Source: Parcubacteria group bacterium M6-OD1-1
GTDB lineage: Bacteria; Patescibacteriota; Minisyncoccia; GWC2-36-17; M10-OD1-4
Assembly: GCA_003056085.1 (NCBI GenBank)
Contig: LSNK01000001.1
Coordinates: forward strand, 88,729-152,728
Direction of reading: 5' to 3'
Length of the DNA stretch: 64,000 bases
Each line of letters begins with the position of its first letter. The stretch's first letter is position 1. The notes under the pieces are model-generated. The model saw nothing but the letters and a program-made list of their open reading frames with translations. It made no database searches and was not told the DNA's origin. This document shows positions 42,554 through 64,000 of this stretch, piece by piece. The translations under genes were made by a program, and so were the position numbers.

Positions 42554-42620
42554 GGAGAGGTGGCTGAGCAATCGCCCCGTAAAAAGGCAGCGGTCTTGTT
42601 CCCAATTTATTCAAATCTTT
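42554..42620 (+). pseudogene. 5' tRNA-Ser-like fragment (acceptor plus D-arm) with divergent tail
   Basis: GGAGAGGTGGCTGAGC... identical to the first 16 nt of the intact tRNA-Ser(TGA), then diverges (cgccccgtaaaaaggcagcggtcttg-ttcccaatttattcaaatc). Confidence 0.5.
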
Positions 42621-42678
42621 AATTTGGTGATAAATTGCAATCCCGAAATAGAATTTGTTTGCAATTTGATATTAGAGC

Positions 42679-42800
42679 GGAGAGGTGGCTGAGCGGTTGC
42701 TCCCTGTTTGTCCAAGAGCAGTAGCGATTGGCTAACAAACAGCAGTACAGCGAGGCGAAGCCGAGTCGTAAAGGCGATAGTCTTGCTCCCGATTTGTTCA
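42679..42800 (+). pseudogene. Disrupted tRNA-Ser-like copy carrying a 58-nt hairpin insertion in the D-loop
   Basis: GGAGAGGTGGCTGAGCGGT, then the insert 42698..42755 (tgctccctgtttgtccaagagcagtagcgattggctaacaaacagcagtacagcgagg), then CGAAG-ccgagtcgtaa-AGGCGATAGTCTTG-ctcccgatttgttcaaatc. No anticodon or T arm. Confidence 0.5.
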
Positions 42801-42823
42801 AATCATTAATAATTTATAAAGCG

Positions 42824-42909
42824 GAGAGGTGGCTGAGCGGTCGAAGGCGATAGTCTTGAAAACTATTGTACGTTCACGCGTACCGAGGGTTCGAATCCCT
42901 CCCTCTCCG
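42824..42909 (+). tRNA. tRNA-Ser (TGA), type II with long variable arm
   Basis: GGAGAGGTGGCTGAGCGGTCGAAGGCGATAGTCTTGAAAACTATTGTACGTTCACGCGTACCGAGGGTTCGAATCCCTCCCTCTCCG, anticodon loop CTTGAAA. Confidence 0.85.
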
Positions 42910-42956
42910 CTTTGTACGATATTATGATTTGATTACAAATCGCAGTGCTGTGCAAA

Positions 42957-43010
42957 AACTATTGTACGTTCACGCGTACCGAGGGTTCGAATCCCTCCCT
43001 CTCCGCTCTG
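42957..43010 (+). pseudogene. Direct repeat of the 3' half of tRNA-Ser(TGA) (anticodon-loop to 3' end), att-site-like
   Basis: aaaactattgtacgttcacgcgtaccgagggttcgaatccctccctctccgct is identical to 42856..42909. It generates the artefactual ORF 42866..43090. Confidence 0.6.
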
Positions 43011-43080
43011 GTATTAAATCAAATTTTATTCGGGAAAAACGTTGCTCCGCTTTGCAACGGAAAATTAATTTACCAAAAAA

Positions 43081-43153
43081 GCGCCCATAGCTCAGCTGGT
43101 AGAGCAGTCGCCTCTTAAGCGAACGGTCCCAGGTTCAAGTCCTGGTGGGCGCA
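43081..43153 (+). tRNA. tRNA-Lys (CTT)
   Basis: GCGCCCATAGCTCAGCTGGTAGAGCAGTCGCCTCTTAAGCGAACGGTCCCAGGTTCAAGTCCTGGTGGGCGCA, anticodon loop CTCTTAA, one mismatch in the anticodon stem. Confidence 0.8.
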
Positions 43154-43203
43154 CAAGAAAATCAAAATTATAAAATAAATTAGTTTACAATTTAATCTTA
43201 TAT

Positions 43204-43330
43204 GAAGAGGTGACTGAGTGGCTGCTCCCTGTTTGTCCAAGAGCAGTAGCGATTGGCTAACAAACAGCAGTACAGCGAGGGCTCCCATTTTATTCACGCT
43301 TGCGTGAGTACAAAATGCAGTGCTTTAGCC
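43204..43330 (+). pseudogene. Disrupted duplicate of tRNA-Ser(GCT) 5' part carrying the same 58-nt insertion
   Basis: GAAGAGGTGACTGAGTGG, then the insert 43223..43280 (identical to 42698..42755), then unrelated sequence. The upstream 25 nt (tagtttacaatttaatcttatatg) are duplicated from the intact gene's promoter region. Confidence 0.5.
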
Positions 43331-60216: not shown

Positions 60217-60288
60217 GGCCTCATCGTCTAACGGTTAGGACACCAGCTTTTCAAGCTGGCGATCGGGGTTCGATTCCCCGTGGGGCTA
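60217..60288 (+). tRNA. tRNA-Glu (TTC)
   Basis: GGCCTCATCGTCTAACGGTTAGGACACCAGCTTTTCAAGCTGGCGATCGGGGTTCGATTCCCCGTGGGGCTA, anticodon loop TTTTCAA. Confidence 0.85.
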
Positions 60289-60298
60289 CAATTAAAAC

Positions 60299-60340
60299 AA
60301 AAACCTCCTTACTCACGAAGGGGGTTTTTGTTTTGGTTCG
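60299..60340 (+). terminator. Terminator after tRNA-Glu
   Basis: aaacctcctt-actcacg-aagggggttt then ttgttttgg. Confidence 0.55.
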
Positions 60341-60414
60341 TATTTTCTGAATAACTCAACGGGTTGAGGTATTCAATTTACTCCGTTATTCTCTATTAAG
60401 TGGTATAGCATACT

Positions 60415-60445
60415 ATCCAAATTTTGGATATTGATTTTTTGGATA
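60415..60445 (+). promoter_or_regulatory. Candidate operator for the XRE regulator: 15-bp palindrome plus a repeated half-site
   Basis: atccaaattttggat (perfect palindrome, 60415..60429), then ttgattttttggata (TTTGGATA again), 15-30 nt upstream of the XRE start codon. Confidence 0.5.
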
Positions 60446-60459
60446 GACAATGATAGCAT

Positions 60460-60681
60460 ATGAACAAATCAATCCATACAAAAGAATACGCCAAATTTGT
60501 AGAAAAATTAAAGCAAGCTCGTATTGAAGCTGACTTTACACAAGTACAAGTTGCCAAAAAACTAAAACGTCCCCAATCACATGTTTCAAATATTGAAACA
60601 GGACAACAAAGAGTTGATGTCATTGAATTGAAAAGATTCGCAAAATTGTACAAAAAAAATATTAATTATTTTATTAAATAA
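60460..60681 (+). CDS. XRE-family HTH transcriptional regulator
   Basis: FTQVQVAKKLKRPQSHVSNIETGQQRVDV is an HTH_3 motif, 73 aa. The stop abuts the next gene. Confidence 0.8.
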   Translation: MNKSIHTKEYAKFVEKLKQARIEADFTQVQVAKKLKRPQSHVSNIETGQQRVDVIELKRFAKLYKKNINYFIK

Positions 60682-60683
60682 AT

Positions 60684-61283
60684 ATGGGATTTTTTAATTT
60701 TTCAAAATACAACAATGCAGAAAAAGAACTCCTAGATTTATATAGCACCGAGTTCGAAAACATAGGAATTCCAGAACCATCTAAAATGGCGGGAAATTTG
60801 TTAGATGAAGCAATCAAAGAATCTAAAAAAATTAATCTTCCCGTTAATGCTGGAGATTCACTTTTAGATAAAGAAAAAAATAATGAAAGCACCCACAATC
60901 TTTTAGAAAAAAAGAGACGGGAGGGTGTGCGTGATGAAGATATTAGATGGTGGTGGAATTCGAGCGACCTAGAACGAATGATGATGTTAAAAGTTGATGA
61001 GTTTCACCGATTAGCTTTACATATAAAATGTCGGGAAGATGGTTTGTCGGCTGAACAGTCAGCTAATCAAGTTAGAAAATTTCATCCTATTTATGGAAAC
61101 CCAGAAGAAACAACTCATACTGATGGGGATGATGGACCACTACCCGAAGAACTAAAAAATAGAATTAATATTTATATAGAAAGAAAACCACAAACAGACC
61201 CTGAAAAATATAAAGATGAAATTGAACAATCAACTACATTTAATGCTTTAATACGAAAAGAACTTAAAAAGAATAACCTTTAA
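60684..61283 (+). CDS. Hypothetical protein (island gene 1)
   Basis: 199 aa, no recognisable motif. Co-oriented with the XRE gene, 2-nt spacer. Confidence 0.5.
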   Translation: MGFFNFSKYNNAEKELLDLYSTEFENIGIPEPSKMAGNLLDEAIKESKKINLPVNAGDSLLDKEKNNESTHNLLEKKRREGVRDEDIRWWWNSSDLERMMMLKVDEFHRLALHIKCREDGLSAEQSANQVRKFHPIYGNPEETTHTDGDDGPLPEELKNRINIYIERKPQTDPEKYKDEIEQSTTFNALIRKELKKNNL

Positions 61284-61321
61284 AAAAATTATCTACGATA
61301 AAATTAAAATATGGAAATGAT

Positions 61322-61546
61322 ATGCATATAGAATATTATAAAAAATTTAGAATAAATATACATAAACCTGAGCCAAGAGATAATAATTGGTTAATAGAGT
61401 GGGATTTAATGATTTCTGTTAAAAATGGTTGGGATCCTTATTCTGATGATAAATTTATTGAAGAAATACCAAATTCATATCCAGAAGATAATTGTCTTAC
61501 TATTGTTTTAAATAGAGTTAAGAAATATATAGATAAAAATTTATAA
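61322..61546 (+). CDS. Hypothetical small protein (island gene 2)
   Basis: 74 aa. Confidence 0.4.
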   Translation: MHIEYYKKFRINIHKPEPRDNNWLIEWDLMISVKNGWDPYSDDKFIEEIPNSYPEDNCLTIVLNRVKKYIDKNL

Positions 61547-61549
61547 AAT

Positions 61550-61981
61550 ATGTATTTAAAATGTAACATATGCGGTAAAAATAGTGTATTTATTTTTCCA
61601 TGGCTTGCTGGGGATAATAATTGTAATAAATGCTCTAAACAGTTTGAGTATAGAAGAAAAAATGGCTTGTGTTTAATGTGTGGTAGTTCTGAGAAAGTAT
61701 TTTTCTCTGGAAAATGTGATAAGTGTCACAAGCTGCAACAACCTAACGAATTTAAGCCAGAAAAAAATATTGGAAAAGATGTGAAAGTGCTTAATAAGCT
61801 TAAAAATAAACCAGCTTCTCATTCACTTATTTTTTGGCTTATTGGATTTTTTGTAATTGTTATTTTCTACAAACCAATTTTCTTTATTATTCAATACCTT
61901 CTTTGGTTTTTTCTAGTAATTCTATCTGAATTAATATGTTTAATCTCCTTAGGAAATCTACTATGCAAATACACAATATAA
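61550..61981 (+). CDS. Double zinc-ribbon protein with C-terminal TM helices (island gene 3)
   Basis: CNICGK...CNKCSK and CLMCGS...CDKCH, then two hydrophobic helices. Confidence 0.5.
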   Translation: MYLKCNICGKNSVFIFPWLAGDNNCNKCSKQFEYRRKNGLCLMCGSSEKVFFSGKCDKCHKLQQPNEFKPEKNIGKDVKVLNKLKNKPASHSLIFWLIGFFVIVIFYKPIFFIIQYLLWFFLVILSELICLISLGNLLCKYTI

Positions 61982-62005
61982 CCAATATTAAATCACATAA
62001 AGAAT

Positions 62006-62539
62006 ATGATTTATCTTGTAGGTGTAGATCATAGAATTCAACATGATGGGATTGAATCAGCTAATCTAAATCAAAGAAAAAAATTTATTGATTATTTAGT
62101 TTCTACTTTTAAAGAGCTTAATATATCTATTGTAGCTGAAGAATTTAATGAAGACTCTCTTGAATATTCTTATGCAAAAAATAGCACAGCTAAACTTGCA
62201 GTACAAAAAAATGATATAAAACATATTTACTGTGATCCCAACATCAAAGAACGAAAAGAAATAAAAATTCCTTCTGAGGACAAAATATGTAAAGATTTAG
62301 GAATTAAATTCATTAGGAATAATAGTGAAGATGAGGCTCGGATTATACAAGAAAAAAGAAAATACTACATTATACGAGAAAATTTTTGGCTTGATAAATT
62401 ATCTGATTCTTTACATAAAGAAATATTAATTATCATCGGAACAGATCATATAAAAAGTTTTAAGAAATTACTTAATTCAAAAAATATTCCTTGCACCATT
62501 CTAAATAACAATTGGTGTTTTGAAAATTTGTTAACATAA
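62006..62539 (+). CDS. Hypothetical protein (island gene 4), convergent with the RT gene
   Basis: 177 aa, N-terminus MIYLVGVDHRIQ, a later ILIIIGTDH. No confident family assignment. Confidence 0.5.
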   Translation: MIYLVGVDHRIQHDGIESANLNQRKKFIDYLVSTFKELNISIVAEEFNEDSLEYSYAKNSTAKLAVQKNDIKHIYCDPNIKERKEIKIPSEDKICKDLGIKFIRNNSEDEARIIQEKRKYYIIRENFWLDKLSDSLHKEILIIIGTDHIKSFKKLLNSKNIPCTILNNNWCFENLLT

Positions 62540-62563
62540 CACAATAACTTGTGTTATGTTAAC
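62530..62563. terminator. Perfect 15-bp stem hairpin shared by the convergent 62006 and RT genes
   Basis: gttaacataacacaa-taac-ttgtgttatgttaac then ttttctc. Overlaps both stop codons. Confidence 0.6.
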
Positions 62564-63515
62564 TTTTCTCCACATATTTTTTATACTTCATTAGAGCTAT
62601 ACGCTTTTTTTTAGCACCTCTTATTTCAATTGGGGATAAACCTTTTTTTAATTGATTTTTGATTTTATCTATCTTCGATCTAGTCTTTTTACCAACTGAC
62701 ACCTTATTTCTATACATAATTAACCCCAAATGCTCAATTCCTTCCTCATGAGAGCATATAAATTTCTTTTCTTGATTTAAAGGTAAGTCATTACTTAATA
62801 ACAACTCTTCTATTTCCTCAGAGATAACTTTCATATCCTCTTTGGAAACCCTGCTTACTGTTATTCCTATATCATCAACGTAAATAGCAAGTCGCGAATC
62901 TTTTCCTTTTAAGCGTTTTTTTACTAATCTATCTATTCTTATAAAAACATCTAAATTACACCAAACAGCCAATCTTGATGAAGTGGCAAATCCACGAGCT
63001 ATAGTTTTTTTGGAAGATCCATTTCCTTTTGGACCAATTGGAACACAGCATACATCAGAAAGAATTTTAGAAGCTCTATAATCACAACCGCACTCACTCT
63101 TAAAAAAATGATAAACTTTTTCTTTTGTTACATTTTCAAAAAAAGTTTTTATATCTAACTTTAATATTGTCCTTTTTCTTTTTTCACCGAGTAAATGTTC
63201 CGCAGCTTTTTTATGATTTAATCCACCAATACCACCAAAAATAAAGTGGGGTAACATTTTGTCATGAGGAGCAAGAATACTTTTATTTATTTTATCTAAT
63301 AGTTTGCCTAGATTAGTACTTTTTGCATTGCGTACATATTTATTTTTATCAGGCTTTGAGTGTTTTTTATTATCTTTCCAATATTGGTCAAAATTACTTA
63401 TTACACCATTTATTAAATTTAAAGATTCTTCTTTGGAAAAATATTTATTACTCAAATGCTTTGCTAATTCATTTTTACTCCTAATAAAAAGTTTTGGATA
63501 TCTTCTATTTTGCAT
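62559..63515 (-). CDS. Compact reverse transcriptase (retron-like or defense-associated RT)
   Basis: RT motifs in order: PHFIFGGIGGLNHKKAAEHL (motif 1, nAkkH-like), ILKLDIKTFFENV (motif 2), VPIGPKGNGSS...FATSSRLAVWCNL (motifs 3/4), IYVDDIGI (motif 5, catalytic YxDD), LPLNQEKKFIC (motif 6), HLGLIMY (motif 7). 318 aa with no fused extra domain. Confidence 0.75.
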   Translation of the reverse strand: MQNRRYPKLFIRSKNELAKHLSNKYFSKEESLNLINGVISNFDQYWKDNKKHSKPDKNKYVRNAKSTNLGKLLDKINKSILAPHDKMLPHFIFGGIGGLNHKKAAEHLLGEKRKRTILKLDIKTFFENVTKEKVYHFFKSECGCDYRASKILSDVCCVPIGPKGNGSSKKTIARGFATSSRLAVWCNLDVFIRIDRLVKKRLKGKDSRLAIYVDDIGITVSRVSKEDMKVISEEIEELLLSNDLPLNQEKKFICSHEEGIEHLGLIMYRNKVSVGKKTRSKIDKIKNQLKKGLSPIEIRGAKKKRIALMKYKKYVEKS

Positions 63516-63828
63516 ATTTCTTTAAAAACTTTGCTTTATCTTGTATTAGATAATTTTGCATTTTTTCACCAAATTCTATAAATTTTCTTTCTATTGTAGA
63601 ACTTTTATCTATTTGTTTTTCATTACCAAAAAGAAATGGAGTGATAGACGAAGGATGAACATTTAAAATTTTAGATAACTTTAAAAGAAATTTCTTAGAC
63701 ACTTCTTTTTGACCAGTTTCTATCATAGCAATAAGAACAGTAGACACATCTAATGCCTTGGCAAATTCAGACTGGGTAAGTCCAGCTTCATCTCTTATTT
63801 TTCTTATTAGATTTGGAAAAGAATACAT
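63505..63828 (-). CDS. XRE-family HTH protein translationally coupled to the RT
   Basis: LTQSEFAKALDVSTVLIAMIETGQKEVSKKFLLKLSKILNV is an HTH_3 motif, 107 aa. Its 3' end overlaps the RT start by 11 nt. Confidence 0.75.
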   Translation of the reverse strand: MYSFPNLIRKIRDEAGLTQSEFAKALDVSTVLIAMIETGQKEVSKKFLLKLSKILNVHPSSITPFLFGNEKQIDKSSTIERKFIEFGEKMQNYLIQDKAKFLKKYAK

Positions 63829-63837
63829 ATAAGAAGA

Positions 63838-63984
63838 CTATAGGGCGACTACCTCAAAAAATCTATGAGTATACGAATAATTTTTAAAATCATCCATAAA
63901 AATCTTAGAATTTTCATTTTCAGTAACCGCCCTATGATACGGGAGACACAATTCATATACAAAAACTAAAGTATTTTTATTCAT
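63838..63984 (-). CDS. Very small ORF upstream of the HTH-RT pair (possibly non-coding)
   Basis: 48 codons (MNKNTLVFVYELCLPYHRAVTENENSKIFMDDFKNYSYTHRFFEVVAL). The same DNA contains inverted repeats, so it may instead be a structured RNA. Confidence 0.25.
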   Translation of the reverse strand: MNKNTLVFVYELCLPYHRAVTENENSKIFMDDFKNYSYTHRFFEVVAL

Positions 63985-64000
63985 AAAGTTATTTCTTTCC

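Follow-up and report, generated by a model that had tools for sequence, protein, structure and literature searches.

A probable Type VI retron of a divergent Patescibacteria lineage, with a candidate toxin frame nested in a putative leader ORF

Type VI is the least understood type of retron. In the classification of Mestre et al. (2020), as relayed in a recent preprint (bioRxiv 10.64898/2026.04.27.721009), its members combine a reverse transcriptase (RT) with a Cro/C1-type helix-turn-helix (HTH) protein encoded upstream of, or overlapping, the RT gene, and features of membership are RT-clade 3 and HTH cluster cl2_1. A small protein (SP) in the order SP-HTH-RT is found in about one quarter of HTH-encoding Type VI loci, while some three quarters are without it (bioRxiv 10.64898/2026.04.27.721009), and most catalogued members have no recognized toxin or RNA. 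Here, we describe an HTH-RT gene pair, and the RNA region preceding it, near the end of a stretch of 64,000 nucleotides (nt) from Parcubacteria group bacterium M6-OD1-1 (contig LSNK01000001.1, positions 88,729 to 152,728), hereafter the window. We consider it probable, at roughly four chances in five, that we are dealing with a Type VI retron, one whose divergent lineage is widespread in Patescibacteria, also known as the Candidate Phyla Radiation (CPR).

Two preprints from 2025-26 have proposed two different control mechanisms for Type VI. In Retron-Vpa2, the RT, HTH and RNA form a complex, and a phage-induced msDNA (multicopy single-stranded DNA) accumulation derepresses translation of the SP (bioRxiv 10.1101/2025.10.22.683967). 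In Retron-Sen3, single-stranded DNA (ssDNA) and SP are produced constitutively, the HTH neutralizes the SP, and inhibition of RecBCD acts as the trigger (bioRxiv 10.64898/2026.04.27.721009). A hydrophobic SP helix is essential for toxicity in Type VI, according to published work including bioRxiv 10.1101/2025.10.22.683967. One CPR case, the Type VI retron of Candidatus Levybacteria (Mestre-729), has already been catalogued and tested, giving no RT-DNA by polyacrylamide gel electrophoresis.

The RT of our locus (318 residues; 62559..63515, minus strand) matches Pfam RVT_1 (2.7e-13, residues 65-266) and carries the catalytic YVDD motif at residues 212-215. This agrees with the initial annotation of the window, which had described the open reading frame (ORF) as an RT free of maturase, endonuclease or other fused domains; the Pfam scan indeed found no domain besides RVT_1. 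Of the nAxxH-like segment (HKKAAEH) pointed out there, the AxxH part stands, while K takes the place of N. Among 37 homologues, residues D121, Y212, D214, D215, K250 and G264 never vary, and every RT motif is likewise kept in at least 37 diverged homologues.

Profile and fold searches both rank this protein with retron RTs. Of the PADLOC models, RT_VI fitted best (1.2e-29, 101.5 bits), followed by RT_IV (80.7 bits) and, more weakly, by Drt3a (51 bits), RT_UG17 (47 bits) and RT_UG26 (39 bits). Four other members of the clade also rank RT_VI first, and RT_VI scores within the clade range from 74 to 106 bits. An AlphaFold2 (AF2) model built with 37 homologues is that of a compact RT (pLDDT 94.2, pTM 0.89), for which the top 12 Foldseek matches in PDB are retron RTs (Ec86, Eco8, Eco2, I-A, Eco7; TM-scores 0.61-0.72). 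Group II intron RTs, the defense-associated RTs (DRTs) DRT9 and DRT2, RTs of diversity-generating retroelements (DGRs) and the abortive infection (Abi) protein Abi-P2 all rank lower. NCBIfam and PDB sequence searches with the RT gave only generic, weak or sub-threshold retron matches. In an exhaustive HMMER search of 1.84 billion representatives, 58 clusters were found at E<=1e-30 and 84 at E<=1e-10, beyond which the signal merges into other RTs. As the nearest full-length relatives outside the clade in this collection are RT_VI proteins (249 and 189 bits), and 49 of the 50 remote matches fit RT_VI, we conclude that the clade is best placed, by profile scores and predicted fold, as a divergent branch attached to Type VI.

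The partner protein points the same way. It is an XRE/Cro-C1 HTH of 107 residues (63505..63828, minus strand) matching Pfam HTH_3 (2.1e-14), with HTH_VI as its best PADLOC model (4.7e-14, 50.4 bits), and it is 35% identical to the canonical Type VI HTH of Shewanella phage MuM16-1. The initial annotation was correct in proposing a retron-like or defense-associated RT with a partner. Its further view that an HTH partner in this arrangement, in a CPR-type genome, was assignable to no family yet described was mistaken, since RT_VI and HTH_VI, the best matches here, define Type VI retrons, and the architecture is that of Type VI. The RT-HTH pair is a known kind of system, present here as a divergent CPR variant with a candidate for a nested toxin ORF.

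The searches above also bear on whether the gene could encode a non-retron defense RT of the DRT/UG or Abi kinds, with an HTH regulator and with no msDNA made from a dedicated msr-msd RNA. RT_VI is ahead of every such model by at least 50 bits, for the window RT and for its clade, despite the PADLOC matches to Drt3a, RT_UG17 and RT_UG26 and a below-cutoff NCBIfam match to Drt3a (5e-13), and DRT9, DRT2 and Abi-P2 fall beneath the retron RTs which fill the head of the fold search. Degenerate NAxxH and VTG motifs would suit such a protein, as would the observation that most tested Type VI retrons yield no RT-DNA. However, the best HTH model is Type VI-specific, outside the clade Type VI RTs are the first relatives to appear, the RNA upstream has covarying, retron-like long-range inverted repeats and 5' stem-loops, and neither fused domains nor partner genes of a DRT/UG or Abi system accompany the RT. 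We regard a DRT/UG or Abi assignment as quite improbable.

We give next to no credence to a DGR or group II intron origin. CPR genomes are rich in DGRs (PMC11661182, PMC8144416), and the RT scores 37 bits against TIGR04416, the cutoff of which is 300. Nevertheless, no pair of repeats resembling a DGR template and variable repeat was found in the 64-kb window or in L001, a 6-kb contig which is 100% identical to the window across 3812 nt and which supplied the sequence past position 64000, and there is no Avd-like or target gene. No ribozyme or other Rfam match was obtained either, a protein of 318 residues has no X/maturase or endonuclease domain, and RTs of both kinds rank below retron RTs in the fold search. 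The three outcomes which the initial annotation had set against its own proposal (no RVT match, a group II intron, a DGR) were all examined, and none applies.

The HTH and RT genes share positions 63505-63515, confirming the 11-nt overlap reported initially. Of the related loci introduced below, 44 have sequence upstream of the RT, and in 42 of these an HTH homologue comes immediately before it, in most cases overlapping its start; the RT, present at every locus, begins over or against the HTH stop. By analogy with described Type VI systems, the HTH is the presumed repressor and antitoxin partner of the RT. No Shine-Dalgarno (SD) sequence precedes the HTH or the RT start. In a control set of the 30 window ORFs of at least 200 residues, the anti-SD energy averaged +0.9 kcal/mol and none reached -4 kcal/mol, and the organism thus seems to initiate translation without SD sequences. 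With long ORFs of this genome lacking SD sequences in general, their absence at the HTH and RT starts is weak proof of coupling; the translational coupling proposed initially is supported, but the missing SD counts little toward it. Two loci, L004 (2851-3927) and L014 (2923-3984), have no separate HTH ORF and an RT ORF extended upstream by 26-50 codons, which may reflect fusion, frameshift or assembly error.

A word-index search with the RT returned 396 homologues at E<=1e-5, the named matches being Patescibacteria, and a scan of one genome per species yielded 47 related loci, almost all in Patescibacteria metagenome-assembled genomes (MAGs). We estimate the CPR branch at some 60-80 clusters at 50% identity, comprising hundreds of sequences. 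Common to the 47 loci is a module of promoter and operator, a structured RNA of about 510 nt, a small ORF, the HTH and the RT. No flanking gene family recurs beyond it, and at the 46 other loci the four genes convergent with the RT in the window never adjoin it. The module is therefore self-contained, the four convergent genes being mere neighbors. We found no public names for the RT, HTH or small-ORF proteins.

The region upstream of the HTH is structured, the ~460 nt preceding it folding with a z-score of -5.83 relative to shuffled sequences. The window itself holds the 3' ~163 nt (63838..64000, minus strand) of a ~510-nt "hybrid" RNA extending over L001 ~1838-2350, where a position x corresponds to window position 66188 - x. 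The promoter and operator and the 5' ~3/4 of the RNA (stem-loops SL-a and SL-b, a central variable region of 44-180 nt, and hairpin H1) lie beyond 64000 on L001. Five helices covary when scored on structure-blind MAFFT alignments. SL-a is paired in 91% of alignment cells, with four of six pairs changed on both sides. H1, with arms at L001 2070-2081 and 2115-2126, is paired in 81% of cells, and 10 of its 11 pairs have changed on both sides. H2 joins the H1 loop (CGGGAGAC, L001 2091-2098, beyond the window) to an arm ~150 nt downstream (GTCTCCCG, 63940..63947, minus strand), and across 39 loci 97.1% of its cells are paired and all eight pairs are compensatory.

H3 is formed by a 5' arm (ATAGGGCGGTTAC, 63923..63935) and a 3' arm (GTAGTCGCCCTAT, 63840..63852), both on the minus strand. 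Its cells are paired in 76% of cases, and all 12 contiguous pairs have changed on both sides (alignment A2), as illustrated by the covarying arm pairs AAGGGGCGAT/ATCGCCCCTT, ACGAGCCGGTTA/TAATCGGCTCGT and ACAAGTTGGTAG/CTACCAACTTGT. H4 connects a segment near the RNA 5' end (CAATTCATATA, L001 1861-1871, beyond the window) with an a2-like inverted repeat (TATATGAATTG, 63949..63959, minus strand; L001 2229-2239). With 87.9% of cells paired, against 25-44% in slid controls, and seven of eight pairs compensatory, H4 is, as judged by covariation, an a1/a2-like duplex. Covariation scores of 0.544 and 0.433 compare with 0.255 and 0.209 for shuffled alignments (none of 500 reached the observed values) and with 0.03-0.20 for slid controls, and RNAalifold recovers H2 and the H3 core de novo. 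Rfam searches of the window end and L001 at permissive thresholds gave no family match for the RNA, the only returns being a tRNA and sub-threshold noise; a match to CRISPR-DR47 at 63904-63940 was judged spurious.

Upstream of the RNA lie a -35 element TTGCCA (L001 1802-1807) and a -10 element TATACT (1825-1830), spaced by 17 nt. Overlapping this promoter, between the two elements, is a palindrome TTATAC-N5-GTATAT (L001 1812-1828). By pattern match, TATAC-N5-GTATA was recovered from 38 of the 44 loci, and in most it sits between the two promoter elements; the palindrome, conserved throughout the CPR clade, is likely the operator for the system's own XRE HTH. Among 34 distinct loci, 10 carry a 9-mer, TGTGGATAA (L001 1786-1794), the reverse complement of the DnaA-box consensus TTATCCACA, directly upstream of the -35 element and with constant spacing from it; ~0.01 per locus would be expected. 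It shares this position in L003, L006, L008, L009, L016, L019, L022, L030 and L031, and one-mismatch variants occur in several others. Such a DnaA-box-like site may link retron expression to DnaA or to the state of replication.

Wherever sequence is available ahead of the HTH, a small ORF adjoins it on the upstream side, the degenerate L047 being the one exception. In the window, gene callers report this ORF, here termed ORF-A (48 residues; 63838..63984, minus strand). A second, shorter frame, ORF-B, is nested in the +1 frame within it (63849..63917, minus strand) and, as confirmed by translating the frame, specifies a 22-residue amphipathic, hydrophobic peptide, MKILRFLWMILKIIRILIDFLR. The 5' arm of H3 contains an SD-like element just upstream of the ORF-B ATG, and the 3' arm runs across the stop codon of ORF-B as far as that of ORF-A.

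It is ORF-B which bears the signature of a coding sequence. Of the 46 loci having the region, 41 keep the frame unbroken from an ATG, and L029 has instead a GTG preceded by a perfect AGGAGG. Distinct peptides measure 19-31 residues, with a mean hydropathy of +1.23 and a net charge of +1 to +5, and follow the consensus M-K/R-x-x-L-R-I-L-R-I-I-L-Q-I-V-R-I-I-x-D-L-L. When the final 17 codons of 40 distinct loci are compared, frame B shows 31% amino acid identity, conservative substitutions with a mean BLOSUM62 of -0.46, and codon-position entropies of 1.54/1.06/1.74. The corresponding figures for frame A are 14% identity and a mean BLOSUM62 of -1.16 for substitutions, while frame C holds 94 stops. 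The anti-SD match upstream of ORF-B averages -6.7 kcal/mol against a background of -1.4, with a perfect GGAGG in Saccharibacteria loci, and, in a genome without SD sequences, this G-rich element stands out.

The SPs of three phage-borne canonical retrons (Shewanella, Pasteurella and Yersinia phages) are single-frame proteins of 48-54 residues with a polar, basic N-terminus. Their C-terminal helix, e.g. ...LKAILKWAFRIFKFILNWFLFD, has the same character as ORF-B. Because the hydrophobic SP helix is essential in Type VI and ORF-B is of like character, ORF-B is the best effector candidate of the locus and, on sequence and by analogy, the putative toxin, a counterpart of the hydrophobic helix at the C-terminus of Type VI SPs. 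A programmed +1 frameshift fusing ORF-A to ORF-B was considered and rejected as the principal explanation: almost all loci keep the frame-B ATG, in many of them a frame-B stop comes shortly before it, and no conserved slippery site exists between H3 and the ORF-B ATG.

ORF-A shows the opposite pattern, its start, open frame and stop position being conserved and its amino acid sequence not. A frame-A ATG occurs 52-99 nt upstream of the ORF-B ATG in 37 of 37 loci, a ~20-fold enrichment over the other frames (0.07 ATG per locus each). The frame is always open up to a stop within the H3 3' arm, a median of 10 nt before the HTH ATG, and the ORF measures 47-61 residues across loci. Several lineages have an SD ahead of its ATG, such as AAGGAGG in L013 and L020. 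Its distal half has T almost without exception at codon position 3 and varies most at position 1, the reverse of a coding pattern. We read ORF-A, from these comparisons, as a putative leader cistron, in which selection would act on its translation and on the place of its stop and not on its product.

The obvious objection is that the effector is ORF-A itself, as a conventional SP, with ORF-B untranslated and the pattern in frame B a by-product of RNA structure or composition. Its length agrees with that of published SPs (48-79 residues), it is the frame that gene callers report, and its universal ATG, permanent openness and occasional SD are what a translated gene would display; moreover, published SP coding regions are also under RNA structural selection. 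But openness is automatic wherever frame B has T at the second codon position, as frame A cannot then hold stops there, and its sole conserved "motifs", LPYxxA and VVAL*, map precisely onto the H2 and H3 arms. The reversed codon pattern, the 14% identity and the radical substitutions of the distal half are out of keeping with a selected protein, and RNA structure is not expected to leave an invariant T with a 3-nt period. ORF-A, in addition, is without the hydrophobic C-terminal helix that ORF-B possesses. We think it unlikely that ORF-A is the toxin, and retain ORF-B as the candidate.

These elements may be assembled into a model of the proposed Type VI retron. A single promoter, with a palindromic operator bound by the HTH, would drive the ~510-nt RNA and then the HTH and RT cistrons, so that the HTH autoregulates. 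The 5' domain of the RNA, with its stem-loops and variable region, is presumably the RT-binding and template part; reverse transcription, msDNA and a priming site are expected here by analogy with described retrons. H4 and H2 would tie this domain to the small-ORF region, and H3 would enclose ORF-B, burying the sequence upstream of its ATG. Translation of ORF-A, in our own proposal, would unzip H2 and H3 and pass ribosomes on to the HTH and then to the RT. By analogy with Vpa2 and Sen3, a complex of RT, HTH and RNA may hold the toxin in check, be it at translation by means of H3 or after translation by means of the HTH. Once a phage infects, reverse transcription, the accumulation of ssDNA or the HTH's state would change, upon which the ORF-B peptide would be made or freed and the infected cell would stop growing, an abortive infection. 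The roles of the HTH and ORF-A, the trigger, the toxicity of ORF-B and the anti-phage function are thus those suggested by analogy. That the toxin is an out-of-frame peptide of 19-31 residues, and that the leader ORF couples HTH and RT expression to RNA folding in a hok/mok-like switch, we put forward tentatively, at somewhat less than an even chance.

The same features could be read without a retron, as a small-peptide toxin with an HTH antitoxin on a hok/mok-like mRNA, the RT being an accessory or degenerate passenger. There is precedent in Retron-Sen3, where HTH and SP form a toxin-antitoxin module which works independently of the RT and non-coding RNA (ncRNA) (bioRxiv 10.64898/2026.04.27.721009), and a catalytically dead Vpa2 RT is non-toxic (bioRxiv 10.1101/2025.10.22.683967); the nested ORFs and fold-back pairing, too, resemble hok/mok mRNAs. 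A passenger RT is nevertheless hard to reconcile with catalytic residues and motifs held invariant in at least 37 homologues and with an RT in every locus, which together speak for a selected enzymatic function, or with an RNA 5' domain conserved beyond the needs of translational control of a toxin. We consider a toxin-antitoxin system with an incidental RT very improbable.

Several observations weigh against our assignment to Type VI and the model built on it. Firstly, the RT is, by its profile scores, remote from canonical Type VI (~100 against 250-350 bits). Phage-borne canonical loci (Shewanella MuM16-1, Pasteurella Pmp14, Yersinia 56.17) score 294-346 bits against RT_VI and their RTs are 21-24% identical to ours; in the two scanned for it, HTH_VI reaches ~120 bits, compared with 50.4 for the window HTH. 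The RT has clade-specific insertions, and in sequence its retron hallmarks are degenerate, with KAAEH for NAxxH and HLG for VTG. A hand alignment shifted by one residue relative to Type VI references sets KAAEH against NAxxH and HLG against (V/I)TG; within the clade, AxxH and G are kept, while the N of NAxxH and the VT of VTG are not. Secondly, six Type VI retrons tested heterologously, the CPR one included, gave no detectable RT-DNA in any case. Thirdly, neither a priming guanosine nor a template could be identified in the ~510-nt RNA. The central variable region is weakly structured, and its mean z of -1.55 led us to set aside the idea that it forms a clear msd stem-loop. Direct repeats of 7 nt of the Vpa2 type, between the 5' leader and the H1 loop, were not found, the longest common substrings being 4.79 in observed and 4.79 in shuffled sequences. 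Lastly, the SD-less genome weakens the coupling drawn from missing SD sequences at the HTH and RT starts, and for the same reason the "SD" of ORF-B may, in this organism, be only a helix arm. The ORF-B of L008, from a Paceibacterota MAG (~2620-2660), has an in-frame TGA in mid-ORF; a decayed copy, a sequencing error and a recoded stop are all possible.

As to the surroundings, a 15-bp hairpin, terminator-like on the RT strand (62530..62563; L001 3625-3658), was found by a terminator scan between the RT stop and a convergent gene of 177 residues. This is among four ORFs of unknown function and without family matches (60684-62539), convergent with the RT as the initial annotation had described. 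We rejected the suggestion that an effector be sought among them or farther along, none being conserved beside the RT in the 46 other loci. Nor need the search extend past 64000, as had also been proposed, since a candidate lies inside the window, within 63838..63984, and no further flanking gene is conserved. As for the tRNA-Glu-adjacent accessory island postulated initially, a tRNA-Glu is present (60217-60289). The GC content is 28.0% from there to the window end (60290-64000) and 33.8% elsewhere in the window, a difference compatible with accessory DNA. Within the 2.2 kb of sequence past the window end, no att-like copy of the 3' end of the tRNA-Glu turned up.

A second small XRE HTH gene (73 residues; 60460-60681, plus strand) sits next to the tRNA-Glu at the far end of the low-GC stretch. 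A close homologue occurs ~2 kb upstream of the retron in L017, and the gene is probably unrelated to the retron. Interspersed intergenic repeats of 40-50 nt (L001 207-260, 437-486, 1505-1554 and 1551-1605) flank an alpha/beta-hydrolase gene just beyond the retron, with further copies at window positions 42598-43279.

For a retron type in which toxin and RNA are so rarely recognized, this branch offers an unusually clean comparative signal, namely a full promoter with its operator, an exceptionally well-supported RNA model of five helices, rich in compensatory changes, and a toxin candidate resolved to its frame. It leads to testable predictions on the wiring of the RNA, the leader ORF and a minimal peptide toxin, and carries a warning that automatic annotation here picks the wrong frame. 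Should the nested toxin prove real, Type VI gene catalogues would mis-annotate the effector in this lineage, and some Type VI loci listed without an SP may hide similar unannotated mini-ORFs. The locus also documents a probable retron-type defense system in ultra-small, host-dependent bacteria whose phage-defense repertoire is poorly known.

Among known systems, the Levybacteria retron Mestre-729 (L052) likewise has a CPR host and an HTH-RT pair classed as Type VI. Unlike ours, it is canonical, scoring 254.6 bits against RT_VI and 85 bits against HTH_VI, with the motifs NAKNH and TTG. As its RT is canonical and 28.7% identical to ours over a 164-residue local match, the present clade is a separate, more divergent branch, and a link between the two was rejected. 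The tested Levybacteria "ncRNA" overlaps a 34-residue ORF with a hydrophobic core (MSQDVLKLRFAFSGAGILISIVASKVTTLLLQKK; L052 6582-6686, minus strand), and a separate 65-residue ORF lies between this and the HTH. Presumed Type VI ncRNAs may contain small hydrophobic ORFs more generally.

In the hok/mok/sok mRNAs of type I toxin-antitoxin systems, the small ORF of a hydrophobic toxin shares its sequence with a leader ORF in another frame, the translation of which probably governs expression, and long-range 5'-3' pairing keeps the mRNA translationally inert. The nested leader and toxin ORFs and the long-range fold-back pairing of our locus resemble this arrangement by analogy and not by homology: an antisense RNA was not identified in our case, the sequences show no similarity, and the ORFs belong to a retron operon with RT and HTH.

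Retron-Sen3 and the cl2075 lineage (Garcia-Rodriguez et al. 2026) resemble our locus. They have the order SP-HTH-RT, a conserved ncRNA within ~280 nt upstream of the SP, long-range pairing flanking an SP coding region itself subject to selection on RNA structure, and an amphipathic C-terminal toxin helix. The Sen3 SP, however, is a single-frame protein of 79 residues, and the IR1-IR2 stem of cl2075 did not covary, whereas H3 covaries strongly. Their hosts are Proteobacteria with RecBCD, the Sen3 trigger pathway, and RecBCD-based triggering may not apply to the CPR hosts found here.

Retron-Vpa2 of Vibrio parahaemolyticus (Zhang et al. 2025) differs in that its toxin has 55 residues, where our candidate has 19-31 and lies out of frame in a second conserved ORF; in the 7-nt direct repeats proposed for its msDNA-dependent derepression, which have no counterpart here; and in its RT, that of our lineage, known from sequence alone, being remote at ~100 bits to the RT_VI profile. 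In its RNA logic, on the other hand, the locus is overall like the published "hyRNA" and extended transcript, with a sequestered SP region and long-range inverted repeats. Both systems order a toxin ORF, an XRE HTH and a compact RT in the same way, the first being a candidate in our case, and place that ORF within a structured transcript of ~470-510 nt headed by a 5' structured domain. In both, long-range inverted repeats tie the coding part to this domain, the ribosome-binding region of the toxin is buried in a helix, and the toxin helix, essential in Vpa2, is hydrophobic.

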